DNA of 64,000 nt from Yuukianura sp. NJ FZ-2021. Its lineage: Eukaryota. Position numbers and translations under genes: made by a program. Below are positions 1,645 to 53,137 of this stretch, piece by piece (position 1 is the stretch's first letter; each line of letters starts with the position of its first letter). A model generated the notes under the pieces. The model saw nothing but the letters and a program-made list of their open reading frames with translations, had not been told where the DNA came from and ran no database searches. Location of the stretch: positions 11,036,001 to 11,100,000 of the forward strand of contig CM102290.1 in NCBI GenBank assembly GCA_046563655.1, written 5' to 3'.

Positions 1645-4600
1645 GTGAGTAAAAACTTAAGTGGGGGTGAAGATGAACTGAATTGGAATGAAGTTTCTTT
1701 TCTGGCCACCCTGTCAATTGAGAGGAATTGCCATTGAGGCTGTAAGGCTCAAGGGCTCCTTGGGGAGACTTCAGTGACCTCAATTGCAGAGGGAAGGCAA
1801 GGAAGGCTCCTCTGCCCATCATCAATTTTCATTCCGACTAAGGACAGGGGGAATCAATTTGAGAAGCTTAGGAGGAAATGAAATCAAATGCCCGGATACT
1901 ATGTTTACGAAGGCCGAGAGAGCGCCTCATAGTGAGTCTTTTGGATCCGTTCCAGAAAAAAAAGATACTGGGTTTTAAATTTTTAAATAATTTTGAAAAC
2001 GGAAACTGAAAATTATTTTCAATTTTCTGGGCAGCGGATATTGTTAAGGGTGTGGTCAAGGTTGCTAGAATTCTGTTGTTACCAAATCATTCAAATTTCA
2101 TCAAATTAACGAATTTTGTGTAGTGGGGTAAATTGAGATTTTGGAAGTTTAGTTATTTTGAAATTTTTTTTTGAGGGATTTTTGAAAATGGTGGGTAGTT
2201 TTGTAGTTGTGAATTTTGTAAAACAGAGTCATTTGTTTGTATGCTGCCAGTACCTGTTCCCCCACTTGGTTAGGTTGTGCAGTTTGGAAACATGGCACGT
2301 GACCTCTCCTGTCTCCTTCCCCTCTCTGGAGTAATGGACATTCTGAGCTGTATGCAGTTTAACGGTGGAAAAGTAGTGGGAAAAGGAGCGAGGCGTAAGT
2401 TGACTTGTAAGCAATTGAGCAGGCTCAAGCTCCTTTCCTTGTGCAAAAGGTTCCTGGAGAGGCAGAAATCGATTTAATCCTCACTAAATTTATGACACTG
2501 ACAGAAAACTCGAGAGAGTGTGAGGCAGGAAAGCGAACGGTTTTCCTTTTGGACGGAAGAACTTTAGAAACAAGGGGGGAGGTTTCCAGGTTTTCAGACT
2601 TTTCAAAATGGAAAACCGAAACAAAGTTTTGAGAAAGAAATCGAAATCTGGTTGGCCTAACTTAAACAACTTGGTTACATTTCGTATCCAGATTTGTTTT
2701 AAGTGCAAGCTATCGCAGCTAAAAAATTTCCTGGTGGAGCTGGAACTAGCTGACCAACTTGGTTGTTTAGCTAGAAATAGTTGGCCAGCTAAGTCCAACT
2801 TGATCAGCCATTGCCGTGGTCTAACTGGATCTAAGCAGCCAGCTTGGTTAGGTTAGAGTCACGTTCTTAGTAGCCAGCTAGGTCTAACGAAAAGCACAAG
2901 CTGAACTTGACGAGCTTTGCGGAAGCTAGAAATATTGCGACCAGCTTGGTCTAACAAAAACACAAGTTGAATTTGACGAGCTTGCCACCTTTAGAAATTG
3001 TGCGCGCAGCTTGGTCCGGCTTGAACATGTTGGTCAAACTAGCTGGACAGCCTTTATAGCCACTTTTGGTTAGTAACGTAAAGTGTCATTAGTGGACTCT
3101 TTGGTGCAAGTTTTTTGTTTTGACTGGCAGTTGTTGCAAGATGTTTACTTTTTTGTGCAATTTTTGTTGAGTACCATTGCATGATTTGGAAGCTTAGTAA
3201 TAACCTTTTCAATTTGAAGTTTGCTAGTTTTTTTATTTCCAGTTTTTTTTTAAATTGACGTTCGTTAAAGTGAATTCTACGTGGCGGAAGGGCTGAGTCA
3301 AAGCAAGAAGTTTAATTATGGTTTGTAAAGCAAAAGTACCACCACCGTGGTGGTTGGCTGTCATGCATTTTCCATACTTATTCAATTTCTGCCTCCTTTG
3401 TTACCAGCGGAAACCTTTCTGCATGAGTTATCTCATAAAAAGTATAAGCTGAAAGTATATGCTACGAACGCTAAGAACCTTCTACTTGAACTGAAGTCCA
3501 AATTGTAGGTTTCCACCATTATTTAAATAAGCATAAGTGGAAGTCATGTCTAAGGATCCCACTTAAGGAGGTCCTCTTCCAACCAAATGCTCTTCAATTT
3601 CCATTGTCTCACTCTTTTTTAGAACAGGTTCAATTCAATTTCCAAGAAAATTTGGAAGAAAATGGGTTCCTGTTAATGTTCATGTTCGGAGGAACAGAAA
3701 ACTGAAAAAGTCCCGGCGCTGGGTTTAATTTATAATTCTGAGGCGGTTGTTTTGATTTGAAAATAAATTGAAAGTGACCGCCTCCTCCCGCTTCTTCTGT
3801 GTTTCTTACTTTTTTACGTTTTGTTATGTTCAAAGTTAAGTTAGGCTAACATAACTTCCTGTTCTCATGATCGTCATGTCACCCGGAGCCAGCGGAAAGA
3901 GGTTGAACGGTTCCTGTTTAGTCACTAGGTTTTTTAAATTGTTATGTTTATTATATTATACATTGTACATGCATTAAGTCTAAGGTTAAGCGAGGTGTGC
4001 CGAGGCACTCTTTTTGCTTTACTTTTTTTTTTTGAATGTGCACCGTGGACCGTGGGCAGAACGTCCACGGCCAAACGCACATAAAAAGTCTTTTTCTTCG
4101 AGTCGTGTGAAATTTATGAGGGATTTATGCTCAGGCTTTCACGCCTCCTTTCTCACATGCACGTCACGCAGAGGCTACAAGGGGAGGAAGTACGAAAGTA
4201 ACGAGGAACTGAAACGGCTTCGTTTTTTATTAAATAAAATTATTGGAGAAAGTAACCTAACCAAATAGGCTAAAAAACAGGGACGTTAGGTTTAGCGTTT
4301 AGGTTTTTATGGTTTCTGGAATTATGGAAAAACAAGCCCGGGAGAAAGCAGAGGAAGGGAAGACAATGAAGAACTCGAAATTGAAAGAAATAGGAGTTCT
4401 TTTTTGTGTGAGGCGGATTTTAAATTCTTGGCGGCCAGAAAGGAAGCAACAGGTTTGAAAAGCTCTTTGAAATGGAAAGTTACGTTGGATTTTAATTTAA
4501 AATCGAAGTTTTGCTTAGGGGTTAGGTTAGGGGGGTCAAATTTTGAAATGGTGCTGAGGGGGAGTTTTGGTAGCTGGGGAATTGTACTTTCGCCTAAAGT

Positions 4601-33000: not shown

Positions 33001-36000
33001 ACATCCCAAAAGAACAGAACATTTCCCTACTTTCCTCACCACCACAACCATGGAGAACAAGAACCAGGAGAAAGTTCTAGCAGATCCAATTCCAAACTTG
33101 ACTCATTTTTTATTTCGGATAACCAAGATTAGAGTGTAGGGAAGTAGCTGGGACAAGGCGAGTTTTCTGGAAGGGACTCCGGATCTCTGTTCGTCCAAAC
33201 ATAAACAGTTGGACTACTGCTTTAAGGGGGCTCCGGTTCCCTGCGAACTGGAAAATTCTAGAAGGTAGGAATCCCTCTTTCAGTTTTCTAAACTTACGTC
33301 TGTCGTCTCAATTTCAGATCCGGATTAATGGGCCGTCCACAAACTACGATGCTGCGATGAGTCAGTTTGACCTTCTTCTCAACAACAAGTACTTTCTTCT
33401 TACTTTTATTGAGACGCTCGAGTGTCAGCGGGGCTTCAAATTACGTGATAAGTAAGATCCATGTCGGACTCAATTTTCAAAAAGTGTTTTGGGTGGGGCT
33501 CCAACTTTCTGGTTTCTTTTGTTTCAGAGTCAATGTTGCCTCTCTTCTGATGATCATCCTTATGGGGAAAATGGAGTACGCTACGGACATTTTGCAGAGC
33601 TTGCTTCATCGTCTTGTGAACAAATCCGTTGGTACGAAGCATCCCCAGCTAATGCTCCGCAGAACGGAGACTGTCGTGGAGAAGATGTTGTCCAACTGGA
33701 TGGCCCTTTGCATGTACAACTACCTCAAGGACCATGTCGGTCCTTCCCTATTCCTTCTTTTCAAAGTAAGTCATTTCAAACTTTGTGGCGATTGCACAAT
33801 TTCAATTTTTGAAATTTTTAGTTGTTTCCTGAAAATTCCAAATTATAATATTTTAAATTTTGCAATAGAATTAGTATAATAATAATAATAAAAAAATCTG
33901 TTTTCCAGGCGCTCAAGTACCAAGTAGAGAAAGGTCCTGTTGATGCCCTAACTCATGACGCTCGTTACTCTCTCTGTGAAGAACGCCTTCTCCGAGAGCC
34001 CATTGATTACTCAGTCATTGTAAGTTTTTCTTTTGATTATCAAATTCAATCAATTAATTTGTCAAAAACGAATTACTAAAATTTTGTTGGTTTTAGACAA
34101 TCCAACTTGTCCAGGAGGATCCCTACTACGAAAAGATTCCGTACCAAGCTTATCAGGTACACTTTGCTTATTTGTTGCAAACTGAAATATGTGGAATTCT
34201 GGGATTATTTGAAATTTAAGAAGAAGTGTGCCAGGAGAAGATGGGTGGGAGGTTGGTTGATTGGAGATGACAGACGGAGAAAGGAAACTGTTTGGAGTCA
34301 TTTGACTAATCCCTTTTCCGGATTCCTGTCTTTTCTCTCCATCTCCTCATTTCTCATCGTCATCTGTCAGTGCTCATTAGAATTTTGGAAGCCTCTGGAG
34401 AAGGAAGGCTCTGGAAAGGAATTTTGGAAGGGCGGGAAAGGCAGGCGACGCTTGAGAGTTGAGCCTCTTCGTGTTTGGAAGTAGAAGGGAGTAACTATGG
34501 GAGAATTAGAAAGTAGGAGAAAGGAACTAAGCCCCTCCGCCCTTAATAATCCCTTACTCCTCTGATTTAGCCTCCAAATGCTATTTATCTATGCCAGGAA
34601 GGATCCTGAGCTATTTATTTCCCCTCTGTGCTGTATACTTTCCTTCATCAGGCTGTTTTAGACAATGAAGAGGCAGAATTCAAAATGCAAAGCTTCCTGG
34701 AGCCGGGTACGGAACGGTGTGCAGGCGAGCAATATGGAAAACGGTATCTTAACGACTTTATTCCAAGAAAAGATCCAGTTTTTGTATTCAGCCAAGTCCG
34801 TCTCCAGCATATCCGTTTTAAATTAATTGTGTTCCCGTTTAGACTTAAAATGTGATTGGAGCTTAGGGGTCCAAAAGCTCCAACTTTATTTTTGGATTTT
34901 GCAAATCGACCTTGTTGCAAAATAAAATGAGCAGAAACGTAGGATTTTTGCGTGCTCCACGAATCTCGTTAGGGAAAGTGCTGAGGAAAGTCTTTTCGTC
35001 AGTTCTCTAAAAAAAAATCGGTAGTTGGTGTGCCTAATGTTCTACAAAAGTTGGAATCAAAAGGTTTTTTTCAAATTCCAGTTTTCTTCTAAAAGCTGCT
35101 TTTTTAGAAAGTTTTTTTTTGGTTTCGGTTGGAATATGGTTGAATAGGCTTTATGCTGCCTGTGGTCACTTTGGTGGGATGTCATAGAGAAAAACCCGAA
35201 CTTTTTTGTGTAAGAATGTTGTACTAAAGGAACCCAAGTTGATGAATCGTCTCTTGATTTTCTATAGACTTTCCAAATGGTGCAGGAAGAATTAGACGAG
35301 AAGATTCAGTGCAAAGTTTTGGACTGTGATACTATTAGTCAAGTCAAGTCCAAGATTCTGGATGCACTTTACAAGAACACGCATTTCAGTCTTCGACCTT
35401 CCGTCCATGAGCTTGACTTGGGTAAGAACCACTACCACCACAAACACGGTGGAACTCGTGATGTTAATATCGCTTTCTGGAAGTTGGAAATCAAAAGTTT
35501 CGGGTTTCGGAAAAGTAAGTTTCCAGCCTTTAGGTATGGAGTCTGGAAAGGACTTTTCCGAACCGGAAGTAATGAGCAGACCAACTCCCATGTATCAATT
35601 TCCAGCCACTCATTTTTATTTGTCTTTTTTCTTTTCCATTTTCTTAGAATGGCGTCAGGGACAACGGGGTCATTTGACGCTGCAGGACGAAGACCTCACG
35701 AGCAGAAGTATTGGTGGCTGGAAGAAACTCAATACGCTGGCTCATTATGGAGTCAAAGACTCTGCAATTATGTCTCTAGTCACTCGCCACAATGACTCCT
35801 ACAGCAGTAACAACACGTCAATCTGCAAAAAATCATGTAACTTAATACCCCAAATCTTTGGTTTTGGAAATTACTTTGGAATTGAAAATTACTCACATCG
35901 AATTTGGAAAATAATGGGGATACGTTTATTGATTTGGACTGGAAGATTTCTAAAAACGAAATTAGAGAATTCGAATTGTAATGTTGATTTTGTTGCCTCT

Positions 36001-37125
36001 GTTTCAGATTCTGGTGCCTATCTAAATAGTGGAATGTCGCCGACCGTGGGAAACGGGATGAGCATGTCGCTAGGTTTAGGACTTGGTCTTGGATTTGGAA
36101 CTCTGGGCTCTAGTAATCATGGACATAATCATCATTCCCGTGACTCTGCACTCTTTCATTTAGTCCGTCCAATTGAAGAGAACGGAGTAGGAGTAGGCAA
36201 TGGCGGAACGTACTTGGGCAGAGGAACAGGAGCGGGAAAAACGACTCCAACAGAACGAGCTCAGAAGGCCATTCCAGAAATATTCCTCACTCGCCTCTTG
36301 TCTACAAAAGGAACGATCCAGAAGTTTGTAGATGACTTCTTTGATACAATTTTTGCAGTCAACGAAGCTCTACCACCCGCTATCAAATGGTTATTTGACT
36401 TACTCGACGAAGCTGCTCGGAGACACAACATTTTGGATCCTGAAGTTGTGCATGCCTGGAAATCAAATAGGTAAGAACTAAAAACTTAAACTGCATTCTG
36501 CTTGGTCATTGGAATCAAATTTAACTTAATTCTTATCAACTTTTTTGTATTTCTAGTTACCCACTTCGTTTCTGGATAAATTTTATCAAGAATCCTGATT
36601 TCATTTTTGATGTGGAGAAAACTGCGACTGTGGAGGCTAGCCTAGCAGTTGTGATGCAGACGCTGATGGACTCTTGCTCAACGTCCGAACAGCGTCTAGG
36701 AAAGGATTCTCCTTCCAGTAAACTCCTATTTGCCAAAGACATCCCACACTACAGGAACCTCGTGTCAAAATTTTATGCTGACATTCGAAATCTCCCGCAA
36801 ATCTCTGACCAAGAAATGAATTCTGCGATGCAACAACTTTCAATGACCCAAGCATCTCCGTTTGATCATGCTGTGGCGCTCAAGGAACTTTACATTTATG
36901 TGTCCCAGTATAACAATCAAGTACGGACGTTTTATTTTACTTTCTGTTCTGAGAACTGTAGTAAATAATGACTTAATTGATTTATAACTAACGTATTGCA
37001 TCTTTTCTGGCTTTCAGATTCTTGAAGCCTTGGAAATGGACCCCTACTGCAAGAAGATGCACTTGGCTCACCGACTTGACAATGTCACTTGCACTCTTGA
37101 GGGAGAAGAGACATCGATGTGCTGA
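1516..37125 (+). CDS. PlexB: Plexin B-type semaphorin receptor, partial (most of the Sema domain lies upstream of the window). Exons: 1516-1644, 8076-8176, 16858-16990, 21360-21755, 24163-24294, 24911-25015, 25332-25592, 30106-30240, 30358-30471, 30654-31130, 31281-31595, 31695-32097, 32363-32505, 33318-33451, 33528-33765, 33909-34019, 35268-35421, 35648-35836, 36008-36470, 36557-36920, 37018-37125
   Basis: All introns are GT-AG with matching phases. The translation shows PSI repeats ([39 protein letters not shown]), IPT domains ([32 protein letters not shown]), a TM segment, and the plexin RasGAP/RBD region ([65 protein letters not shown]). The B-type call rests on recalled similarity to insect PlexB. 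Confidence 0.95.
8076..8176 (+). CDS. PlexB: PlexB exon, PSI-1 ([33 protein letters not shown])
   Basis: tgcag/gtaaga boundaries; canonical PSI cysteine pattern. Confidence 0.93.
16858..16990 (+). CDS. PlexB: PlexB exon ([18 protein letters not shown]...[21 protein letters not shown])
   Basis: ttcag/gtaagt boundaries; phase matches both neighbours. Confidence 0.9.
20853..21030. repeat. 19-bp GC-rich minisatellite (GCGCAGGTTGTGCGCTGTT, ~9 copies) flanked by AT microsatellite, in a PlexB intron
   Basis: Directly visible; the spurious ORFs here repeat with a 19-aa period. Confidence 0.9.
21360..21755 (+). CDS. PlexB: PlexB exon, IPT-like domain plus PSI-2
   Basis: ORF 21360; tacag/gtaaag; [21 protein letters not shown]. 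Confidence 0.92.
21870..22040. repeat. Degenerate ~28/29-bp tandem repeat (core CATGGGTCAATTTTCATG) with alternating subtypes
   Basis: Four near-exact copies of catgggtcaattttcat plus decayed flanking copies. Confidence 0.75.
24163..25592 (+). CDS. PlexB: PlexB exons 24163-24294, 24911-25015 and 25332-25592 (IPT-like domain and PSI-3)
   Basis: Phase-0 GT-AG introns; [14 protein letters not shown].., [53 protein letters not shown]. Confidence 0.9.
30106..32097 (+). CDS. PlexB: PlexB exons for IPT/TIG domains and the transmembrane helix (30106-30240, 30358-30471, 30654-31130, 31281-31595, 31695-32097)
   Basis: IPT motifs; [24 protein letters not shown] followed by [31 protein letters not shown]. 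Confidence 0.95.
32363..37125 (+). CDS. PlexB: PlexB cytoplasmic RasGAP/RBD exons, ending ...[13 protein letters not shown]
   Basis: Conserved plexin cytoplasmic motifs across 9 exons; TGA at 37123-37125. Confidence 0.95.
34097..34156 (+). CDS. PlexB: Putative alternative 60-nt PlexB cassette exon ([20 protein letters not shown])
   Basis: ttttag acceptor, CAG/gtacac donor, phase 0-0; similar to the start of exon 35268 ([14 protein letters not shown]). Confidence 0.65.
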
Positions 37126-37437
37126 CAAAACGGTAAATCGACTTGATTTGAAACGAATTATATAAACGTAAATTAAAATTTGTTAATAGTTATTTGAAAT
37201 TGTGTGTTTTTAATTTTTGTAGGGTCGCCTCCAAGACCTCCTTCGACTTCATCGTATTGTGATACGACGGCAGAGCAGCAGAGCCGAAACAACTTGTTCT
37301 TCTACCATACCCTGCTACACAACCAAGCGGAATTGATGCGGGAGCGGGAAAATTTAAGATCATCGCCCGTTTCAGGCACTCAAACTTGGTATCGTGAGAA
37401 GAATCGGCTTCCACCGCAGCCCTACCGTCCCTACTAA
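37126..37437 (+). CDS. PlexB: Putative stop-codon readthrough extension of PlexB (37126-37132 spliced to 37223-37437)
   Basis: TGA-CAA-AAC-G/gtaaat...ttgtag/GG-TCG...; in-frame open reading to TAA at 37435-37437. Confidence 0.6.
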
Positions 37438-37494
37438 AAACTTTGACTTCAACCAGTCTAAAGTTTTTTCGAAGGAAACGATTTTGGAGGTGAC
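37224..37494 (+). promoter_or_regulatory. Long-range RNA stem 3' of the PlexB UGA (candidate readthrough stimulator)
   Basis: 37224-37236 GUCGCCUCCAAGA pairs with 37482-37494 UUUUGGAGGUGAC (13 bp, 2 G-U); 37239-37246 UCCUUCGA pairs with 37469-37476 UCGAAGGA (8 bp). Confidence 0.6.
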
Positions 37495-38301
37495 GAGTGA
37501 AACAGACGTCGTCACAAAACTGACTTACTTATGCAACCGTGCCTCAACTTAGCACTAATAATTGTACTACTTAAAATAACTACTTAAGATTAAGTATGAC
37601 ACTGTAAAACCTACTTTTTATCAAACTAATTCAAATCCAGAGTATCTCAGTCGGCCTCATAACAGCATTATACAACACGGATCAAATCAACGTTATCCGA
37701 CTAATCTTTTCACCCGGCTTAAGGAGGTCGTGGCTCTCTATTTTTTCAAGGTGTGATTCCCAACTTACTTAGGCCTCTTCCCCAGCAGAAGGGTTAGACA
37801 TTGTCCGTTCTATCGCTAATGTGGCCAATTTTAACCCTTTTGTTAAATTCAGCGTCAGACCACGGATTCCCCTACATCTGACAACTCTTTTGTAGAAGAA
37901 AAATGTTTGGGCGGTATTGAACACATTAGCGACTGGAAAACTGAGTAGATAGAGTAAAATTAATTTAGTTTTGGCGCCTAAGCTCTTTTTGTAAATCGTC
38001 AAATCGGGCCTCGAGGTTGTCTGTACCTATTTATACTAATTTAGATTTCTTAATGCTCCTTTAGCCTATTTGTTGATTTCAAATTGTTCCCCAAGGACCT
38101 TTGAGGGCCCTTGAAACCGAATGAGAGTCGCTGCTGTAGCTGAGTTATGTTATGGCGTCGACTCTGCCTGCCAAAGAATGGTTGAGCATCACCCTGCGAG
38201 AGTAACTTGATTAAATTTAAAACGAAAAGTTAAATTAATTATATTGAAAGGAAAAAGCATAAGACTTATTTAAATGTAATTGAGAATATAAAAAAAAAGG
38301 A

Positions 38302-38307
38302 AATAAA
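38302..38307 (+). terminator. Candidate PlexB polyadenylation signal AATAAA
   Basis: AATAAA followed by a T-rich tract, ~0.9 kb after the second stop and just before the next gene. Confidence 0.35.
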
Positions 38308-38630
38308 TCCACGCTACTTCGACGAATTCTCCTCTTCTTGTTTTACGATCACTGTGGAAAAGTGTTCCTGGGAAACATTTCAAAGGAAGTATAAAGTTTT
38401 CCTAAAAAAACGCAAATTCTTTGGGGTTGGTTAGCCTTTGCCTATGGGTTTTCGACGGATACACTACCGTTGACATCTCAAAAGTTGGGAACATGAAAGT
38501 AGATACTAGTTCTAATTCCCATAGGCCATCATGTACGTATCCCGTTTTTTTTAGCGTTTCAACGTAAGGTTGTTTCAACGTTTTCAAGTTGAAGTTCGTC
38601 AGTTGGGCTGTGGACATCCCGAATACAACA

Positions 38631-41600
38631 ATGCCAGGGATTTCTATGGTAAACGTATTATGTTGTCTTTTGTGCTTCTACGCGGTGACAGCAAACGAGC
38701 CACCATCATTGCCTACTACAAGTTCGTTGACATCCGCCCCGAGGGCTTCGGAAGGTCAAGGACGCCAAGGCGAGCTGAGAACGCAAGGACTGTTCCCGAA
38801 ACTGTTCGGCTACTTACGCAATGCCTTTAGTCCAGTAGTAGTGAGCGCAGGCGCTGTAACTCAAAGCAGCATTAGTTCCAGTACAACGGAATTATTAGAG
38901 TCCATTCAGGACGATGGGGACGACTACGATGCAAGGAACAGCGATTACCGTGCCTTAGGGCTCCAAATGGATAATAACTTTGACGAGTTCCAGCAGAACG
39001 ATGTCGAGGAAGAACCAGCATCCGGTACTGAAAAAGGTAGGAGATTCAGAATTTTTAGAAATTTTAAAAGCTCCAAAATCAAACATCCAGCTTTTCGTCA
39101 AATTTTGAGAAAAACCATGGACTACAGTCCAAGTCCATGGATTTTTTCGAAATTTGGTCAAAATCTAAGGGTACCTTTTTATATTTTGTAAAAATACTAT
39201 ATATTTTTGTGAATTCAGGGGCGAAGAGTTTACCTTTCTATCGCTTTCCGTTCCCGAGTTATGAATTTTGAAAGTTTTTGAAAATTAAAATGAAATTTTG
39301 AAATTTTATATCTCGTGAACGGAAAGCGATAGAGACCTAATCTCTTCACGAAAAACTTTCAAAAAGTATGAAGAATTTTTAGAAATATTAAAAACTCCAA
39401 AATGGAACATCAAGTTTTTCGTCAAATTTTGAAAAAAACCATGGACTATAGTCCATGGTTTTTTGTGAAATTTCGTCAAAATCTAAGGGTACCTTTTTAT
39501 ATTTTCTAAAAATACTATATATTTTTGTGAATTCAGGGGCGAAGAGTTTACCTTTCTATCGCTTTCCGTTCCCGAGTTATGAATTTTGAAAGTTTTTGAA
39601 AATTAAAATGAAATTTTGAAATTTTATATCTCGTGAACGGAAAGCGATAGAGACCTAATCTCTTCACGAAAAACTTTCAAAAAGTATGAAGAATTTTTAG
39701 AAATATTAAAAACTCCAAAATGGAACATCAAGTTTTTCGTCAAATTTTGAAAAAAACCATGGACTATAGTCCATGGTTTTTTGTGAAATTTCGTCAAAAT
39801 CTAAGGGTACCTTTTTATATTTTCTAAAAATACTCCATATTTTTGTGAATTCAGGGGCGAAGAGTTTACCTTTCTATCGCTTTCCGTTCCCGAGTTATGA
39901 ATTTTGAAAGTTTTTGAAAATTAAAATGAAATTTTGAAATTTTATATCTCGTGAACGGAAAGCGATAGAGACCTAATCTCTTCACGAAAAACTTTCAAAA
40001 AGTATGAAGAATTTTTAGAAATATGAAAAACTCCAAAATGGAACATCAAGTTTTTCGTCAAATTTTGAAAAAAACCATGGACTATAGTCCATGGTTTTTT
40101 TGTGAAATTTCGTCAAAATCTAAGGGTACCTTTTTATATTTTCTAAAAATACTATATATTTTTGTGAATTCAGGGGCGAAGAGTTTACCTTTCTATCGCT
40201 TTCTGTTCCCGAGTTATGAATTTTGAAAGTTTTTGAAAATTAAAATGAAATTTTGAAAATTTATATCTCGAGAACGGAGAACGATAGAAAGCCAATCTCT
40301 TCACGAAAAGGTTTCAATAAATGTGAAGAATTTTTAGAAATTCTGAAAACTCCAAAATGGAACATCAAGTTTTTCGTCAAATTTTGAAAAAAACCATGGA
40401 CTATAGTCCATGGATTTTTTCGAAATTTGGTCAAAATCTGAGGGTACCTTTTTATATTTTGTAAAAATACTATATATTTTTGTGAATTCAGGGGCGAAGA
40501 GTTTACCTTTCTATCGCTTTCTGTTCCCGAGTTATGAATTTTGAAAGTTTTTGAAAATTAAAATGAAATTTTGAAAATTTATATCTCGAGAACGGAGAAC
40601 GATAGAAAGCCAATCTCTTCACGAAAAGGTTTCAATAAATGTGAAGAATTTTTAGAAATTCTGAAAACTCCAAAATGGAACATCAAGTTTTTCGTCAAAT
40701 TTTGAAAAAAACCATGGACTATAGTCCATGGATTTTTTCGAAATTTGGTCAAAATCTGAGGGTACCTTTTTATATTTTCTAAAAATACTATATATTTTTG
40801 TGAATTCAGGGGCGAAGAGTTTACCTTTCTATCGCTTTCCGTTCCCGAGTTATGAATTTTGAAAGTTTTTGAAAATTAAAATGAAATTTTGAAAATTTAT
40901 ATCTCGAGAACGGAGAACGATAGAGAGCCAATCTCTTCACGAAAAGCTTTCAATAAATGTGAAGAATTTTTAGAAATTCTGAAAACTCCAAAATCGAACA
41001 TCAAGTTTTTCGTCAAATTTTGAAAAAAACCATGGACTATAGTCCATGGATTTTTTCGAAATTTGGTCAAAATCTGAGGGTACCTTTTTATATTTTCTAA
41101 AAATACTATATATTTTTGTGAATTCAGGGGCGAAGAGTTTACCTTTCTATCGCTTTCCGTTCCCGAGTTATGAATTTTGAAAGTTTTTGAAAATTAAAAT
41201 GAAATTTTGAAAATTTATATCTCGAGAACGGAGAACGATAGAGAGCCAATCTCTTCACGAAAAAGTTTCAATAAATGTGAAGAATTTTTAGAAATTCTGA
41301 AAACTCCAAAATCGAACATCAAGTTTTTCGTCAAATTTTGAAAAAAACCATGGACTATAGTCCATGGTTTTTTGTGAAATTTGGTCAAAATCTAAGGGTA
41401 CCTTTTTATATTTTCTAAAAATACTATATATTTTTGTGAATTCAGGGGCGAAGAGTTTACCTTTCTATCGCTTTCCGTTCCCGAGTTATGAATTTTGAAA
41501 GTTTTTGAAAATTAAAATGAAACTTTGAAAATTTATATGTCGAGAACGGAGAACGATAGAGAGCCAATCTCTTCACGAAAAAGTTTCAATAAATGTGAAG

Positions 41601-44596
41601 AATTTTTAGAAATTTTGAAAACTCCAAAATGGAACATCAAGTTTTTCGTCAAATTTTGAAAAAAACCATGGACTATAGTCCATGGTTTTTTGTGAAATTT
41701 GGTCAAAATCTAAGGGTACCTTTTTATATTTTCTAAAAATACTATATATTTTTGTGAATTCAGGGGCGAAGAGTTTACCTTTCTATCGCTTTCCGTTCCC
41801 GAGTTATGAATTTTGAAAGTTTTTGAAAATTAAAATGAAACTTTGAAAATTTATATGTCGAGAACGGAGAACGATAGAGAGCCAATCTCTTCACGAAAAG
41901 GTTTCAATAAATGTGAAGAATTTTTAGAAATTCTGAAAACTCCAAAATCGAACATCACGTTTTTCGTCAAATTTTGAAAAAAACCATGGACTATAGTCCA
42001 TGGATTTTTTCGAAATTTGGTCAAAATCTAAGGGTACCTTTTTATATTTTCTAAAAATACTATATATTTTTGTGAATTCAGGGGCGAAGAGTTTACCTTT
42101 CTATCGCTTTCCGTTCCCGAGTTATGAATTTTGAAAGTTTTTGAAAATTAAAATGAAATTTTGAAAATTTATATCTCGAGAACGGAGAACGATAGAGAGC
42201 CAATCTCTTCACGAAAAGGTTTCAATAAATGTGAAGAATTTTTAGAAATTCTGAAAACTCCAAAATCGAACATCACGTTTTTCGTCAAATTTTGAAAAAA
42301 ACCATGGACTATAGTCCATGGATTTTTTCGAAATTTGGTCAAAATCTAAGGGTACCTTTTTATATTTTGTAAAAATACTATATATTTTTGTGAATTCAGG
42401 GGCGAAGAGTTTACCTTTCTATCGCTTTCCGTTCCCGAGTTATGAATTTTGAAAGTTTTTGAAAATTAAAATGAAATTTTGAAAATTTATATCTCGAGAA
42501 CGGAGAACGATAGAGAGCCAATCTCTTCACGAAAAGGTTTCAATAAATGTGAAGAATTTTTAGAAATTCTGAAAACTCCAAAATCGAACATCACGTTTTT
42601 CGTCAAATTTTGAAAAAAACCATGGACTATAGTCCATGGTTTTTTGTGAAATTTGGTCAAAATCTAAGGGTACCTTTTTATATTTTCTAAAAATACTATA
42701 TATTTTTGTGAATTCAGGGGCGAAGAGTTTACCTTTCTATCGCTTTCCGTTCCCGAGTTATGAATTTTGAAAGTTTTTGAAAATTAAAATGAAACTTTTG
42801 AAAATTTATATGTCGAGAACGGAGAACGATAGAGAGCCAATCTCTTCACGAAAAGGTTTCAATAAATGTGAAGAATTTTTAGAAATTCTGAAAACTCCAA
42901 AATCGAACATCACGTTTTTCGTCAAATTTTGAAAAAAACCATGGACTATAGTCCATGGATTTTTTCGAAATTTGGTCAAAATCTAAGGGTACCTTTTTAT
43001 ATTTTCTAAAAATACTATATATTTTTGTGAATTCAGGGGCGAAGAGTTTACCTTTCTATCGCTTTCCGTTCCCGAGTTATGAATTTTGAGAGTTTTTGAA
43101 AATTAAAATGAAATTTTGAAAATTTATATCTCGAGAACGGAGAACGATAGAGAGCCAATCTCTTCACGAAAAGGTTTCAATAAATGTGAAGAATTTTTAG
43201 AAATTTTGAAAACTCCAAAATGGAACATCAAGTCTTTCATCAAATTTTGACGGTAAAAATCGGTAAGGGTACCTTTTTATATTTTCTAAAAATACTCTCT
43301 TCTCAATTTTCGGGGTGGCCTGCTAAAACACTTGTCCAATTCATCCCAGTAGTTTCGAATGAGTTGAAGGATACATTCAGATAAACAAGGGCGGGATTTA
43401 TATTAATTATATTTCACGTTATTTATAACAGACTCTGTTATTAACAGAAGCTTTATAATTTCGGTTTTAAGAATCTTCATTGCTTCAGGGCGTGACTTTG
43501 AAACTACTACTGCAAATGGAACGGACGAATGGCGTGGGATGCCCATCTATTTATTCCAGGGTCAGTACTTAGCTGAGCCACGTCTCAATCGCTTTGTCGA
43601 TGGAGCTATGGAAAACCTTGGACAGGAAATCAAGTCAGCCGCGTTGGATCCCATTTACTTTAAGGTTCTACCCAAAGGAAGAGTTGCGTAAGTACTAGCC
43701 AGAGGTCAATTTATGGGAAGCAAGAAGCAATTGACCTACCTAACCTAAACTAAACGGAAATTACGAATTTCCAGGAGCAGGCCCAAACCAGTCAGACGAA
43801 TTCCTGTAAAACCCGCGAGAAGGCGTAGCAGGAGACCAGTGCGCCGTGGCATTCAAAGAGGTCAAACGTTCTTTACTGGAAGGAGACTCAACTTTGCAGA
43901 AGACCATGAAACTGACACTGGTAGGCAGTTGCAGCGTAGGCCTGCGGCAACTGCGCAGGCTCAAAGTCAAAAGCAACAAGCGAGAAATCAAGTCGTTGGG
44001 GCAGGACGAGTTGAAGGTTTGAGTAAAGTTCTGCGAGATGGAGATGCCGAAATGCAACTGTTTGGAAACTATACGCTGGTAAAAATTTATTCTTCTTAAA
44101 ATGCTTATAGTCTTTAATTAAATCGTCAGGATTTGAATCATCAGAAACCAATTTATATTTTTTAGATCCGATCACATTACAACATGGGACCACTGAATCT
44201 GGTGATGCAGTTTCGAACTATTCGAGGCATGCGTCGTGCAGATGCGAATTTAGAAAGAGTGAAAATTCATACTGTAACTCGCGTGAATACACAAGGTTGT
44301 GAAATGATCGACTTTCTCCTCGACAGGTAGATTCTTAAATAAAATTGTGTATCACAAATTTTAAGTTAAAAAAAAGTTTTTTGGGAGGTTAATGTCAACC
44401 TATTGTTAATTTTTTGTAAATTTATTTAATTAGGCCGCATCCAGAGACAATTGAAATTCGAGGTCAATTGTTCCCAATGGCACAACGAGTGGCTAAAAAT
44501 GTTTTCTCTAGGCTTTTTGATGGCGAATCTTTTCTCGTTGCTCGAATTCGGGAGAAAACTGGTTTAGCTCTTCTGTCCAAGAAAACTTCGTTCTAA
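38631..44596 (+). CDS. Secreted ~410-aa protein with a Der p 7 (group 7 allergen)/TULIP-like C-terminal region. Exons 38631-39036, 43489-43687, 43775-44078, 44166-44326, 44434-44596
   Basis: Signal-peptide-like start [21 protein letters not shown]; five exons join in frame with GT-AG sites to TAA at 44594-44596. The motifs NRFVDGAMENLGQEIKSAALDPI and GRVEGLSKVLRDGD resemble group-7-allergen-like proteins (family call from memory, ~0.5). Confidence 0.8.
39049..43297. repeat. 318-bp satellite, ~13.3 tandem copies, filling intron 1 of the secreted-protein gene; each unit has two inverted repeats
   Basis: GAATTCAGGGG recurs at 39211, 39529, 39847, 40166, 40484, 40802, 41120, 41438, 41756, 42074, 42392, 42710 and 43029. 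Confidence 0.97.
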
Positions 44597-45861: not shown

Positions 45862-48800
45862 ATGCATATGTAAATGCATATGTAAATGCATATGTAAATG
45901 CATATGTAAATGCATATGTAAATGCATATGTAAATGCATATGTAAATGCATATGTAAATGCATATGTAAATGCATATGTAAATGCATATGTAAATGCATA
46001 TGTAAATGCATATGTAAATGCATATGTAAATGCATATGTAAATGCATATGTAAATGCATATGTAAATGCATATGTAAATGCATATGTAAATGCATATGTA
46101 AATGCATATGTAAATGCATATGTAAATGCATATGTAAATGCATATGTAAATGCATATGTAAATGCATATGTAAATGCATATGTAAATGCATATGTAAATG
46201 CATATGTAAATGCATATGTAAATGCATATGTAAATGCATATGTAAATGCATATGTAAATGCATATGTAAATGCATATGTAAATGCATATGTAAATGCATA
46301 TGTAAATGCATATGTAAATGCATATGTAAATGCATATGTAAATGCATATGTAAATGCATATGTAAATGCATATGTAAATGCATATGTAAATGCATATGTA
46401 AATGCATATGTAAATGCATATGTAAATGCATATGTAAATGCATATGTAAATGCATATGTAAATGCATATGTAAATGCATATGTAAATGCATATGTAAATG
46501 CATATGTAAATGCATATGTAAATGCATATGTAAATGCATATGTAAATGCATATGTAAATGCATATGTAAATGCATATGTAAATGCATATGTAAATGCATA
46601 TGTAAATGCATATGTAAATGCATATGTAAATGCATATGTAAATGCATATGTAAATGCATATGTAAATGCATATGTAAATGCATATGTAAATGCATATGTA
46701 AATGCATATGTAAATGCATATGTAAATGCATATGTAAATGCATATGTAAATGCATATGTAAATGCATATGTAAATGCATATGTAAATGCATATGTAAATG
46801 CATATGTAAATGCATATGTAAATGCATATGTAAATGCATATGTAAATGCATATGTAAATGCATATGTAAATGCATATGTAAATGCATATGTAAATGCATA
46901 TGTAAATGCATATGTAAATGCATATGTAAATGCATATGTAAATGCATATGTAAATGCATATGTAAATGCATATGTAAATGCATATGTAAATGCATATGTA
47001 AATGCATATGTAAATGCATATGTAAATGCATATGTAAATGCATATGTAAATGCATATGTAAATGCATATGTAAATGCATATGTAAATGCATATGTAAATG
47101 CATATGTAAATGCATATGTAAATGCATATGTAAATGCATATGTAAATGCATATGTAAATGCATATGTAAATGCATATGTAAATGCATATGTAAATGCATA
47201 TGTAAATGCATATGTAAATGCATATGTAAATGCATATGTAAATGCATATGTAAATGCATATGTAAATGCATATGTAAATGCATATGTAAATGCATATGTA
47301 AATGCATATGTAAATGCATATGTAAATGCATATGTAAATGCATATGTAAATGCATATGTAAATGCATATGTAAATGCATATGTAAATGCATATGTAAATG
47401 CATATGTAAATGCATATGTAAATGCATATGTAAATGCATATGTAAATGCATATGTAAATGCATATGTAAATGCATATGTAAATGCATATGTAAATGCATA
47501 TGTAAATGCATATGTAAATGCATATGTAAATGCATATGTAAATGCATATGTAAATGCATATGTAAATGCATATGTAAATGCATATGTAAATGCATATGTA
47601 AATGCATATGTAAATGCATATGTAAATGCATATGTAAATGCATATGTAAATGCATATGTAAATGCATATGTAAATGCATATGTAAATGCATATGTAAATG
47701 CATATGTAAATGCATATGTAAATGCATATGTAAATGCATATGTAAATGCATATGTAAATGCATATGTAAATGCATATGTAAATGCATATGTAAATGCATA
47801 TGTAAATGCATATGTAAATGCATATGTAAATGCATATGTAAATGCATATGTAAATGCATATGTAAATGCATATGTAAATGCATATGTAAATGCATATGTA
47901 AATGCATATGTAAATGCATATGTAAATGCATATGTAAATGCATATGTAAATGCATATGTAAATGCATATGTAAATGCATATGTAAATGCATATGTAAATG
48001 CATATGTAAATGCATATGTAAATGCATATGTAAATGCATATGTAAATGCATATGTAAATGCATATGTAAATGCATATGTAAATGCATATGTAAATGCATA
48101 TGTAAATGCATATGTAAATGCATATGTAAATGCATATGTAAATGCATATGTAAATGCATATGTAAATGCATATGTAAATGCATATGTAAATGCATATGTA
48201 AATGCATATGTAAATGCATATGTAAATGCATATGTAAATGCATATGTAAATGCATATGTAAATGCATATGTAAATGCATATGTAAATGCATATGTAAATG
48301 CATATGTAAATGCATATGTAAATGCATATGTAAATGCATATGTAAATGCATATGTAAATGCATATGTAAATGCATATGTAAATGCATATGTAAATGCATA
48401 TGTAAATGCATATGTAAATGCATATGTAAATGCATATGTAAATGCATATGTAAATGCATATGTAAATGCATATGTAAATGCATATGTAAATGCATATGTA
48501 AATGCATATGTAAATGCATATGTAAATGCATATGTAAATGCATATGTAAATGCATATGTAAATGCATATGTAAATGCATATGTAAATGCATATGTAAATG
48601 CATATGTAAATGCATATGTAAATGCATATGTAAATGCATATGTAAATGCATATGTAAATGCATATGTAAATGCATATGTAAATGCATATGTAAATGCATA
48701 TGTAAATGCATATGTAAATGCATATGTAAATGCATATGTAAATGCATATGTAAATGCATATGTAAATGCATATGTAAATGCATATGTAAATGCATATGTA

Positions 48801-51800
48801 AATGCATATGTAAATGCATATGTAAATGCATATGTAAATGCATATGTAAATGCATATGTAAATGCATATGTAAATGCATATGTAAATGCATATGTAAATG
48901 CATATGTAAATGCATATGTAAATGCATATGTAAATGCATATGTAAATGCATATGTAAATGCATATGTAAATGCATATGTAAATGCATATGTAAATGCATA
49001 TGTAAATGCATATGTAAATGCATATGTAAATGCATATGTAAATGCATATGTAAATGCATATGTAAATGCATATGTAAATGCATATGTAAATGCATATGTA
49101 AATGCATATGTAAATGCATATGTAAATGCATATGTAAATGCATATGTAAATGCATATGTAAATGCATATGTAAATGCATATGTAAATGCATATGTAAATG
49201 CATATGTAAATGCATATGTAAATGCATATGTAAATGCATATGTAAATGCATATGTAAATGCATATGTAAATGCATATGTAAATGCATATGTAAATGCATA
49301 TGTAAATGCATATGTAAATGCATATGTAAATGCATATGTAAATGCATATGTAAATGCATATGTAAATGCATATGTAAATGCATATGTAAATGCATATGTA
49401 AATGCATATGTAAATGCATATGTAAATGCATATGTAAATGCATATGTAAATGCATATGTAAATGCATATGTAAATGCATATGTAAATGCATATGTAAATG
49501 CATATGTAAATGCATATGTAAATGCATATGTAAATGCATATGTAAATGCATATGTAAATGCATATGTAAATGCATATGTAAATGCATATGTAAATGCATA
49601 TGTAAATGCATATGTAAATGCATATGTAAATGCATATGTAAATGCATATGTAAATGCATATGTAAATGCATATGTAAATGCATATGTAAATGCATATGTA
49701 AATGCATATGTAAATGCATATGTAAATGCATATGTAAATGCATATGTAAATGCATATGTAAATGCATATGTAAATGCATATGTAAATGCATATGTAAATG
49801 CATATGTAAATGCATATGTAAATGCATATGTAAATGCATATGTAAATGCATATGTAAATGCATATGTATATGCATATGTAAATGCATATGTAAATGCATA
49901 TGTAAATGCATATGTAAATGCATATGTAAATGCATATGTAAATGCATATGTAAATGCATATGTAAATGCATATGTAAATGCATATGTAAATGCATATGTA
50001 AATGCATATGTAAATGCATATGTAAATGCATATGTAAATGCATATGTAAATGCATATGTAAATGCATATGTAAATGCATATGTAAACGCATTACGTAAAC
50101 GCACATGTAAACGCATACGTAAACGCATATGTAAACGCATACGTAAACGCATACGTAAACGCATATGTAAACGCATTACGTAAACGCATTACGTAAACGC
50201 ATACGTAAACGCACATGTAAACGCATATGTAAACGCATATGTAAACGCATACGTAAACGCATATGTAAACGCATTATGTAAACGCATACGTAAACGCACA
50301 TGTAAACGCATATGTAAACGCATACGTAAACGCATATGTAAACGCATTACGTAAACGCATATGTAAACGCATACGTAAACGCATATGTAAACGCATATGT
50401 AAACGCATATGTAAACGCATATGTAAACGCATATGTAAACGCATACGTAAACGCATTACGTAAAACGCATACGTAAACGCACATGTAAACGCATATGTAA
50501 ACGCATACGTAAACGCATGCATACGTAAACGCATATGTAAACGCACATGTAAACGCATACGTAAACGCATATGTAAATGCATATGTAAATGCATATGTAA
50601 ATGCATATGTAAACGCATATGTAAACGCATATGTAAACGCATATGTAAACGCATATGTAAACGCATATGTAAATGCATATGTAAACGCATATGTAAATGC
50701 ATATGTAAACGCATATGTAAACGCATACGTAAATGCATATGTAAACGCATACGTAAACGCACATGTAAACGCATTACGTAAACGCATATGTAAACGCATA
50801 CGTAAACGCATATGTAAACGCATACGTAAACGCATATGTAAACGCATACGTAAACGCATACGTAAACGCACATGTAAACGCATATGTAACGCATATGTAA
50901 ACGCATATGTAAACGCATATGTAAACGCATATGTAAACGCATACGTAAACGCATACGTAAACGCACATGTAAACGCATATGTAAACGCATACGCATAAAC
51001 GCATATGTAAACGCATACGTAAACGCATACGTAAACGCATATGGTAAACGCATATGTAAACGCATACGTAAACGCATACGTAAACGCATATGTAAACGCA
51101 TACGTAAACGCATGCGCATACGTAAACGCATACGTAAACGCATATGTAAACGCACATGTAAACGCATACGTAAACGCATATGTAAACGCATATGTAAACG
51201 CATACGTAAACGCATACGTAAACGCATTACGTAAACGCATTACGTGTAAACGCACATGTAAACGCATATGTAAACGCATTACGTAAACGCACATGTAAAT
51301 GCATATGTAAACGCATATGTAAACGCACATGTAAACGCATACGTAAACGCATATGTAAACGCATATGTAAACGCATACGCACATGTAAACGCATATGTAA
51401 ACGCATACGTAAACGCATATGTAAACGCATTACGTAAACGCATACGTAAACGCATACGTAAACGCATATGTAAACGCATACGTAAACGCATACGTAAACG
51501 CACATGTAAACGCATACGTAAACGCACATGTAAACGCATATGTAAACGCATACGTAAACGCATATCGCATGTAAACGTACATGTAAACGCATATGTAAAC
51601 GCATATGTAACGCATTACGTAAACGCACATGTAAACATATGTAAACGCATACAAAAACGCATTACGTAAAACGCATATGTAAACGCATATGTAAACGCAT
51701 ATGTAAACGCATATGTAAACGCATGCGTAAACGCATATGTAAACGCATACGTAAACGCATATGTAAACGCATATGTAAACGCATACGTAAACGCATATGT

Positions 51801-53137
51801 AAACGCATACGTAAACGCACATGTAAACGCATTACGTAAACGCATACGTAAACGCATATGTAAACGCATATGTACAACGCATATGTAAACGCACATGTAA
51901 ACGCATACGTAAACGCACATGTAAACGCATACGTAAACGCATATGTAAACGCATTACGTAAACGCATATGTAAACGCATTACGTAAACGCACATGTAAAC
52001 GCATTACGTAAACGCATATGTAAACGCATATGTAAACGCATTACGTAAACGCATATGCTAAACGCACATGTAAACGCATACGTAAACGCATATGTAAACG
52101 CATTACGTAAACGCACATGTAAACGCATACGTAAACGCATACGTAAACGCATATGTAAACGCATACGTAAACGCACATGTAAACGCATATGTAAACGCAT
52201 ATGTAAACGACATGTAAACGCATTACGTAAACGCATTACATGTAAACGCATACGTAAACGCATATGTAAACGCATACGTAAACGCATATGTAAACGCATA
52301 CGTAAACGCATATGTAAACGCATACGTAAACGCATATGTAAACGCATATGTAAACGCATTACGTAAACGCACATGTAAACGCATGTAAACGCATATGTAA
52401 ACGCATACGTAAACGCATATGTAAACGCATACGTAAACGCATATGTAAACGCATGTAAACGCATATGGGCGCATGTAAACGCATATGTAAACGCATACGT
52501 AAACGCATACAAACGCATTAAGTAAACGTAAACGCATATGTAAACGCATACGTAAACGCATATGTAACGCATACGTAAAACGCACATGTAAACGCATATG
52601 TAAACGCATTACGTAAAACGCATGTAAACGCACATGTAAACGCATATGTAAACGACATGTAAACGCATACGTAAACGCATATGTAAACGCATACGTAAAC
52701 GCATACGTAAACGCACAAACGCATATGTAAACGCATTACGTAAACGCATACGTAAACGCATATGTAAACGCATACGTAAACGCATATGTAAACGCAATGT
52801 AAACGCATACGTAAACGCATTACGTAAACGCATACGTGTAAATGCATATGTAAATGCATATGTAAATGCATATGTAAATGCATATGTAAATGCATATGTA
52901 AATGCATATGTAAACGCATATGTAAACGCATATGTAAATGCATATGTAAATGCATATGTAAATGCATATAAATGCATATGTAAATGCATATGTAAATGCA
53001 TATGTAAATGCATATGTAAATGCATATGTAAATGCATATGTAAATGCATATGTAAATGCATATGTAAATGCATATGTAAATGCATATGTAAATGCATATG
53101 TAAATGCATATGTAAATGCATACAAAATGCATATGTA
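45862..53137. repeat. 12-bp satellite (GCATATGTAAAT)n. About 352 near-perfect copies to ~50086, then a heterogeneous CpG-containing domain (GCAYAYGTAAAC) to ~52840, then the T-type again up to the gap
   Basis: Directly visible; explains the long AYVN/HMHL/YAFT ORFs. Confidence 0.98.

Follow-up and report, generated by a model that had tools for sequence, protein, structure and literature searches.

A conserved long-range RNA helix past the plexin-B stop codon of springtails as a probable stimulator of readthrough

The 3' end of the plexin-B gene

The 3' end of a plexin-B gene is located in a stretch of 64,000 nucleotides (nt) from Yuukianura sp. NJ FZ-2021 (GenBank assembly GCA_046563655.1, contig CM102290.1, positions 11,036,001 to 11,100,000 of the forward strand), which is called the window here and to which all coordinates refer unless a locus is named. 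The canonical coding sequence ends in a UGA stop codon, followed in the spliced messenger RNA (mRNA) by a spacer of 8 nt, by the 5' arm of a long-range helix and by an in-frame coding extension. The helix was found in the window and in three orthologous metagenome loci (L001, L002 and L003), and it probably stimulates readthrough of the stop codon. Positions in the mRNA such as +9 are counted from the first base after the UGA, with the intron removed in the window sequence and in L001. The domain is laid out as follows:

37018..37122, + strand: last canonical coding exon of plexin-B, 35 codons, by translation; ends in ...EGEETSMC
37123..37126, + strand: first stop codon UGA with its 3' C (TGC-TGA-C), the TGA being 37123-37125; same context in L001-L003
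37126..37132, + strand: first 7 nt of the spacer (CAAAACG); the eighth is G 37223, beyond the intron
37133..37222, + strand: putative 90-nt GT-AG intron within the spacer, G/GTAAAT...TTTTTGTAG/G
37223..37434, + strand: in-frame extension (QNGSPPRPPSTSSYCDTT...PQPYRPY), 73 codons past the UGA when the 7 upstream spacer nt are counted
37224..37236, + strand: 5' arm of the outer helix, 13 nt, GTCGCCTCCAAGA, starting at +9 in spliced RNA
37239..37246, + strand: 5' arm of the inner helix, 8 nt, TCCTTCGA, by folding
37296..37404, + strand: internal helix of the loop domain, 37296-37303 (GTTCTTCT) with 37397-37404 (AGAAGAAT), in the minimum free energy (MFE) structure and by RNAalifold
37435..37437, + strand: second stop codon TAA, within the loop, by translation
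37469..37476, + strand: 3' arm of the inner helix, TCGAAGGA, in the 3' untranslated region (UTR), 32 nt past the second stop
37482..37494, + strand: 3' arm of the outer helix, TTTTGGAGGTGAC, in the 3' UTR
37495..37705, + strand: further 3' UTR with blocks shared by the window and L001, by pairwise alignment

In the outer helix 37224-37236 pairs with 37482-37494 (13 base pairs (bp), including 2 G-U pairs), and in the inner helix 37239-37246 pairs with 37469-37476 (8 bp, all Watson-Crick). The two are separated by an internal loop of 2 nt (37237-38) opposite 5 nt (37477-81), and together they enclose a loop of 222 nt in which the TAA at 37435-37437 is included. After removal of the intron the spacer reads CAAAACGG, 8 nt, while in unspliced RNA the stop codon and the helix are 98 nt apart. 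An initial annotation of this DNA, made by a model from the letters alone, had described both helices with their 2 x 5 internal loop, a loop of ~220 nt holding the second stop, and a distance of 8 nt in spliced versus ~98 nt in unspliced RNA; all of these are borne out in the sequence.

The exons upstream of the stop codon match the Pfam family PF08337 (Plexin_cytopl), the plexin cytoplasmic RasGAP domain (3.6e-57 and 3.1e-34). The best protein matches come from springtails: the Orchesella cincta Plexin-B is at 88% and an Allacma fusca protein at 89%. Insect proteins show at most 73% identity to the plexin-B of the window in a protein search. Judged by its sequence, the gene is a plexin-B of the springtail type. 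The Allacma fusca protein terminates at the same ...EGEETSMC. Among the 120 arthropod plexin-B-like matches listed, 96 have Cys as C-terminal residue and 40 end in EGEETS.C, so that the UGA is the canonical and conserved end of the protein. A few annotated isoforms among the listed matches part ways immediately after ...TLE, and some insects and crustaceans may therefore have alternative 3' exons. Neither the extension (70 residues) nor the last exon (35 residues) matches a Pfam family.

Orthologues of the gene end

A metagenome scan with the last exon yielded 78 stretches that fit the pattern, three of which (L001, L002 and L003) encode a relative. Because each of these carries the penultimate exon upstream, with 97% (L001), 89% (L002) and 89% (L003) amino acid identity to the window, they are plexin-B orthologues, at two levels of divergence. 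An exhaustive search of representative proteins with the 70-residue extension gave three matches at E ≤ 0.001. Two of these were discarded as repetitive, unrelated proteins, leaving P0123 as the sole true relative. P0123 is a 130-residue gene call in ENA on a contig of a metagenome collection; it reads MDPYCKK...EGEETSMC, followed by Trp and then by a homologous extension, which shares 62% with that of the window over 34 residues (BLASTP) and 68% over 44 residues (HMMER). A word-based search with its residues 30-85 found no relative besides P0123 itself, and its cluster has one member. The Trp is residue 30 and stands at the exact position of the TGA in the four DNA sequences; it could represent a TGG codon, a gene call in which TGA was read as Trp, or an edited transcript.

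Stability of the helix

All 21 pairs of the two helices are part of the MFE structure in each of the five sequence contexts that were folded. Pair probabilities were 0.85-1.0 in spliced contexts of 331 and 513 nt, in an unspliced context of 421 nt and in an exon-only context of 278 nt, and 0.77-1.0 in a spliced context of 1017 nt. The 278-nt domain of the window has a folding energy of -96.5 kcal/mol versus a mean of -69.3 kcal/mol for shuffled sequences (z = -5.57; 0 of 200 shuffles as stable). The corresponding z-scores are -3.05 for L001, -5.22 for L002 and -4.44 for L003, again with no shuffle equally stable in any of them. The reverse strand of the domain is also stable (z = -5.84), and the outer helix is mismatched there at the sites of the plus-strand G-U pairs.

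The position of the helix was examined by a duplex scan, in which the spliced mRNA was divided into 298 overlapping 23-nt windows and 1000 dinucleotide shuffles of the downstream RNA served as controls. The segment at +9 ranked first of 298 by long-range duplex energy in each of the four sequences, with energies of -33.1 (window), -35.1 (L001), -32.1 (L002) and -27.9 kcal/mol (L003), values reached by none of the 1000 shuffles in any case; for the window the shuffle mean was -15.9 kcal/mol versus the observed -33.1. In an inverted-repeat search of 37000-37700 the outer and inner arms appear as separate entries among 20 inverted pairs. Counted without G-U pairs and without the bridging internal loop, the inverted repeat would not be remarkable.

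Conservation and covariation of the helix

For each orthologue a spliced context of 550 nt was folded and the pairing register was taken from the MFE structure of that species. A long-range helix starting at +9, with pair probabilities of ~1 and its 3' end in the 3' UTR past the second stop, was found in all four sequences. It spans 271 nt in the window, 230 nt in L001, 288 nt in L002 and 442 nt in L003, closing a loop of about 217-430 nt, and it consists of an outer stem of 12-14 bp and an inner stem of 5-8 bp. Over 14 homologous 5' positions (+9 to +22) in four species, 54 of the 56 cells are paired. Two or three pair types occur at 6 of the 14 positions, and 5 of the 14 have changed on both sides:

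+12: G-U to U-A
+17: C-G to U-A
+18: A-U, G-C, C-G
+20: G-U, C-G, U-A
+21: A-U, U-A, C-G

In register 34 of 36 cells pair; offsetting the 3' partner by 1-3 nt brings this down to 14-22. At +12 the G-U pair is kept in three of the four species and replaced by U-A in the fourth, which argues that the helix acts as sense-strand RNA. The inner helix is retained with other bases in L001, where the G-C pair of the window at mRNA index 63 has become C-G. The initial annotation had proposed two checks that could be made by computation, folding against shuffled controls and covariation in orthologues, and both come out in favour of the helix: it lies in the MFE structure of a domain that is more stable than all of its 200 shuffles, and compensatory changes are present at 5 of 14 positions among four species.

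Alignment by itself recovers part of this structure. RNAalifold finds the basal 9 bp on an unguided MAFFT alignment, with 2 broken cells in L003 that stem from a 1-nt bulge; owing to this bulge, plain MAFFT alignment shifts the L003 3' arm by one base. The 3' arm lies within 15 nt, TTGGAGGTGACGAGT, over which the window and L001 do not differ, and little of the UTR from the second stop up to these 15 nt is conserved. The loops align poorly except between close relatives. RNAalifold also predicts the internal helix of the loop domain, 37296-37303 with 37397-37404 (columns 77-84/178-185). This helix joins the codons of the two best-conserved motifs of the extension, NLFFY and YREKN; with conserved codons as both of its arms it is inseparable from coding constraint.

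Could the arms have met by chance? Both are of low complexity, one pyrimidine-rich and the other purine-rich, so that a CT-rich coding sequence facing a GA-rich UTR might form an inverted repeat fortuitously, next to a fortuitous open frame; there are 20 inverted pairs in these 700 nt, and the +1 frame is likewise open, over 39-87 codons. Such a coincidence would still have to produce a segment that, in every one of the four species, ranks first of 298 and is matched by none of 1000 shuffles, as well as the compensatory changes at 5 of 14 positions, a ratio of nonsynonymous to synonymous substitution (dN/dS) of 0.16 in the extension (see below) and a conserved stop codon and spacer length. We give it next to no probability.

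Beyond the helix, several near-identical blocks of 3' UTR, among which the 17-nt ATGCAACCGTGCCTCAA, are shared between 37495-37705 of the window and 906-1130 of L001, despite saturated synonymous sites upstream. These blocks may be regulatory sites, for example sites for microRNAs (miRNAs) or RNA-binding proteins. Because they are conserved between the window and L001, the transcript is expected to extend past the 3' arm.

The stop codon and the coding extension

The context TGC-TGA-C is present in all four DNA sequences and is followed by an open extension in frame 0 of 73 (window), 63 (L001), 75 (L002) and 56 (L003) codons. Between the window and L001 the same residue is found at 48 of 63 aligned codons of the extension, every insertion or deletion comprises whole codons, and dN/dS in frame 0 is 0.16. 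The extension thus bears the marks of a coding sequence and appears to be under purifying selection. In the preceding exon synonymous divergence (pS) between these two sequences is near saturation at 0.85 and nonsynonymous divergence (pN) is 0.04, and pS in the extension is 0.54, small samples of 35 and 63 codons being compared; a lower synonymous divergence in the extension would be expected of an overlapping RNA constraint. Outside close relatives the extension is of low complexity and poorly conserved.

In L002 and L003 the TGA is located between two conserved coding stretches on contiguous DNA with no intron nearby, and splicing therefore cannot bypass the stop codon or explain expression of the extension. 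A conserved TGA-C followed by a second open reading frame (ORF) with a coding signature is what characterizes the insect-type 'abundant readthrough' genes (Jungreis et al.), and both are found here. From this comparative evidence we infer that the extension is translated, by readthrough in vivo.

Other origins of the open frame were considered and rejected. Alternative splicing would have to start from the last exon, which lacks a phase-1 GT donor. Exon skipping would shift translation to the +1 frame, which is open for 39, 68, 87 and 57 codons and is less conserved when the translations are read; it is ruled out for L002 and L003, where no intron is available. An antisense gene was suggested by a minus-strand ORF of 112 codons at 37190-37528. 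Across the domain this frame is open in the window alone (92 of 92 codons) and is interrupted in L001, L002 and L003, with longest runs of 65 of 78, 70 of 97 and 40 of 149 codons, respectively.

The Trp of P0123 at the site of the UGA bears on RNA editing. The duplex might recruit ADAR, which would convert the A of the UGA into inosine, giving UGG (Trp), and the extension would then be made from edited transcripts. The predicted pairing of L001 takes in the spacer as well, and the stop codon too when 550 nt are folded. Editing of the amber/W type, as in hepatitis delta virus (HDV), acts on an A within a duplex and leaves the RNA different from the DNA at that site. The stop codon of the window, L002 and L003, on the other hand, lies outside any conserved duplex, and the conserved helix starts 8 nt past the stop instead of covering it. 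The target A has a 5' G neighbour, the least favoured neighbour for ADAR, and the Trp itself may be a TGG codon or a gene call reading TGA as Trp. Editing is considered a very unlikely source of the extension.

A conserved UGA directly after the Cys that ends 96 of the 120 listed arthropod plexin-B-like matches also brings selenocysteine to mind: a Cys-Sec pair would be formed at the old C-terminus, and the helix would act like the selenocysteine redefinition element of SEPN1. That element likewise has a conserved stem close to a recoded UGA, 6 nt past it, and can stimulate readthrough even without a selenocysteine insertion sequence (SECIS) (PMC3159437). The SEPN1 element forms a local hairpin (16 bp, 5-nt loop) and acts alongside a SECIS, and for springtail plexin-B no SECIS match was found with Rfam at E ≤ 1 in window positions 36000-40000 or in the whole of L001-L003. 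A low-complexity and poorly conserved extension is moreover unlike a catalytic selenoprotein site, and we regard selenocysteine as an extremely improbable explanation. At the same threshold Rfam gave no match of any kind in 37223-37500; the 41 matches in 36000-40000 are all located at 39100-40000 and fall below the gathering scores. The whole of L001-L003 gave one sub-threshold match to a miRNA family, in L001, and nothing else.

The spacer and its intron

The spacer is 8 nt long in all four sequences, reading CAAAACGG in the window, CGAGACGG in L001 and CATGAGGA in L002 and L003. At the position of the window's intron L001 also has a GT-AG intron, of 70 nt. As 70 is not a multiple of 3, the extension of L001 is in frame only after splicing, and this supports the intron call in the window, where the intron is presumably spliced out as well. 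In L002 and L003 a spacer of equal length and the helix are contiguous, without an intron. The intron would thus show that the 8-nt spacing is kept across a splice junction in the window and in L001.

When the intron of the window is retained, the reading frame meets a stop after 6 codons, so that retention would do away with the extension irrespective of the helix. The initial annotation had suggested that splicing or retention of this 3' intron toggles readthrough. As a general mechanism this finds no support, two of the four orthologues being intronless at this site.

The region of the 3' splice site at 37214-37227 (TTTTTGTAGGGTCG) is 86% complementary to 37426-37439 (CGTCCCTACTAAAA), around the second stop. 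This would be an alternative pairing, possible in unspliced RNA only; judged by eye it is not obviously retained in L001. In L003 an extra intron of ~240 nt (3062-3301 of that locus) splits the last coding exon after ...ENVG(C), ahead of TLEGEPTSMC, and none follows the stop codon, which indicates that intron positions at this springtail gene end are fluid.

Proposed mechanism of readthrough

In the mechanism proposed here, the canonical UGA-C of plexin-B would be read through at some frequency, by which a C-terminal extension of 73 residues, encoded across the short 3' intron, would be appended to the protein. The helix (13 + 8 bp in the window) closes a stable domain of ~270 nt, in which nearly all of the extension ORF is contained. 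When the UGA occupies the ribosomal A site, the base of the helix would be positioned at the mRNA entrance, where it may shift the competition between release factor and near-cognate transfer RNA towards decoding, as in alphaviruses and Drosophila kelch. The evidence from sequence comparison, folding and analogy makes the helix the probable stimulator of readthrough at the plexin-B UGA, well short of certainty. This was also the central proposal of the initial annotation. Its structural side has been strengthened by the UGA-C, the extension, the 8-nt spacer and the covarying helix in four orthologues; the stimulation itself we infer.

Several points weigh against this interpretation. The comparison comprises four DNA sequences, and pairing registers taken from each species' own MFE lean towards structure. 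The 5' arm also codes for a conserved Ser-Pro-Pro, by which conservation of the arm is confounded with coding. The window and L001 have further conserved blocks of 3' UTR in common, and the retention of the 3' arm between these two therefore says little by itself. The 3' arm of L003 is part of a GA-rich tract at a distance of 430 nt, where pairing requires a 1-nt bulge. The spacer of L001 is itself predicted to be paired (p ~0.99), so that an unpaired spacer of 8 nt is not universal. Finally, the helix could have another role in the 3' UTR, with readthrough resting on the UGA-C alone.

This last point amounts to an explanation of its own, in which the long-range helix is a conserved mRNA element for another task, for example the binding of a Staufen-type double-stranded RNA-binding protein in localisation, stability or translation, and the UGA-C by itself drives any readthrough. 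Staufen-type proteins bind long-range duplexes, and the duplex found here, of ~20 bp, joins sites 230-440 nt apart and has one arm in the 3' UTR, where the further conserved blocks suggest a regulatory load. Readthrough moreover needs no structure, which is predicted at just 9-10% of the candidates (PMC5100048). A protein-binding duplex of the UTR would, however, need no particular position, and the start of this helix is fixed at +9 in four of four sequences despite loops of 217-430 nt. In addition, its 5' arm lies in translated sequence, from which readthrough ribosomes would strip a bound protein. A task unrelated to readthrough is for these reasons judged unlikely, though it deserves to be taken seriously.

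Stimulation of readthrough by the helix can be extended, speculatively, to a self-resetting device, in which the helix ties the start of the readthrough ORF to a UTR site past the second stop. The whole extension ORF would then lie in the loop and the 3' arm would never be under a translating ribosome. Termination would leave the stimulator intact, and a readthrough ribosome would melt the helix briefly, by which readthrough events might be spaced out. In the window and L001 the 8-nt spacing would arise only upon intron removal, so that the signal would be coupled to splicing. The output would be a toggling of the terminal Cys of plexin-B, the buried C-terminus modulating receptor signalling. 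This extended scheme is offered tentatively, and the odds are against it.

Comparison with known readthrough elements

The known systems considered here are described in two articles (PMC3159437; PMC5100048). Extended 3' stem-loops of 11-14 bp, located 8-9 nt past readthrough UGA codons and with loops of 101-268 nt, were described by Firth et al. (2011; PMC3159437). The stems of Venezuelan equine encephalitis virus (VEEV) and Sindbis virus (SINV) were tested in reporters with substitutions in each arm and in both arms, and the stem of Drosophila kelch (14 bp, 8-nt spacer, 268-nt loop) is a prediction (PMC3159437). Readthrough stop codons are enriched in UGA and in a following C, and conserved structure was predicted within 100 nt 3' of 9-10% of the candidate stops versus <1% of other transcripts (PMC5100048). 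The features of the Firth-type elements are found, by comparison, in all four springtail sequences: a conserved in-frame ORF past the UGA, a spacer of 8 nt where about 7-12 nt is expected, a stem of at least ~11 bp with compensatory substitutions, and a long, less conserved loop, for which some 100-270 nt is typical.

Drosophila kelch resembles the springtail element in being a cellular gene with a UGA, an 8-nt spacer and a stem of ~14 bp that has a small asymmetric interruption and is conserved in relatives. The loops are very long (268 nt in kelch, 222-258 nt in the springtail element), and both are less conserved than the stem. The two differ in stop codon context (UGA-A in kelch, UGA-C in springtails) and in host, a fly versus a springtail, and share no sequence similarity. 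The 3' arm of kelch lies inside its second ORF. The springtail 3' arm, in contrast, is located in the 3' UTR past the second stop, so that the loop encloses the whole short extension, and the spacer is interrupted by an intron in two of the four springtail sequences, unlike that of kelch.

The alphaviruses VEEV and SINV (nsP3/nsP4) share with the springtail element the UGA-C and the compensatory substitutions; their stem is 11-12 bp with a bulge, their spacer 8-9 nt (12 nt in SINV) and their loop 101-154 nt (PMC3159437). Their element is viral and reporter-tested, whereas that of springtails is computed only, with a longer stem (21 bp in two segments) and a larger loop. Drosophila headcase is, like springtail plexin-B, a cellular readthrough gene with a stimulatory 3' structure, in which a conserved stem base carries a variable loop; it differs by its UAA stop codon and by a local hairpin with a loop of ~52 nt (PMC3159437; PMC5100048). 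The gag-pol junction of murine leukaemia virus (MuLV) shares the 8-nt spacer that places the structure at the mRNA entrance of the ribosome (PMC3159437). MuLV has a compact pseudoknot after UAG-G, whereas the springtail structure is a nested long-range helix, obtained by folding methods that are blind to pseudoknots.

Novelty and significance

No report connecting PlexB with readthrough was found in a literature search. PlexB is absent from the main texts of PMC5100048 and PMC13278127 and from two of the three supplementary files of PMC5100048. A search for Collembola together with 'stop codon readthrough' gave a bristletail mitochondrial genome study as the sole co-mention. Two features of the springtail element are unusual: its 3' arm lies in the UTR, so that the loop surrounds the entire extension ORF, and in part of the lineage the spacer contains an intron.

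If the interpretation is correct, structure-stimulated readthrough reaches a lineage of non-insect hexapods and a major axon-guidance/semaphorin receptor. Readthrough would bury the Cys-ending C-terminus that is common to 96 of the 120 listed arthropod plexin-B-like matches, which points to a regulated change of receptor function. Vertebrate B-plexins have PDZ-binding tails, and by analogy the C-terminus of plexin-B may be a docking motif. Because the 3' arm is located in the UTR, outside coding constraint, arm mutants and compensatory mutants are feasible without a change of the protein, and the compact element makes a good test case.

Neighbouring repeats

A 318-bp satellite is located at 39048-43250, ~1.5 kb downstream of the plexin-B 3' UTR (13.2 copies, 97% matches). 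Its palindromic units yield many sub-threshold Rfam matches to plant and animal miRNA families, which are hairpin artefacts of the repeat. Further downstream, a 12-nt tandem repeat, ATGCATATGTAA, occupies 45862-51999 with ~508 copies (95% matches) and is the cause of the GC content of 0.25 and the GC skew of 0.33 at 46-50 kb.

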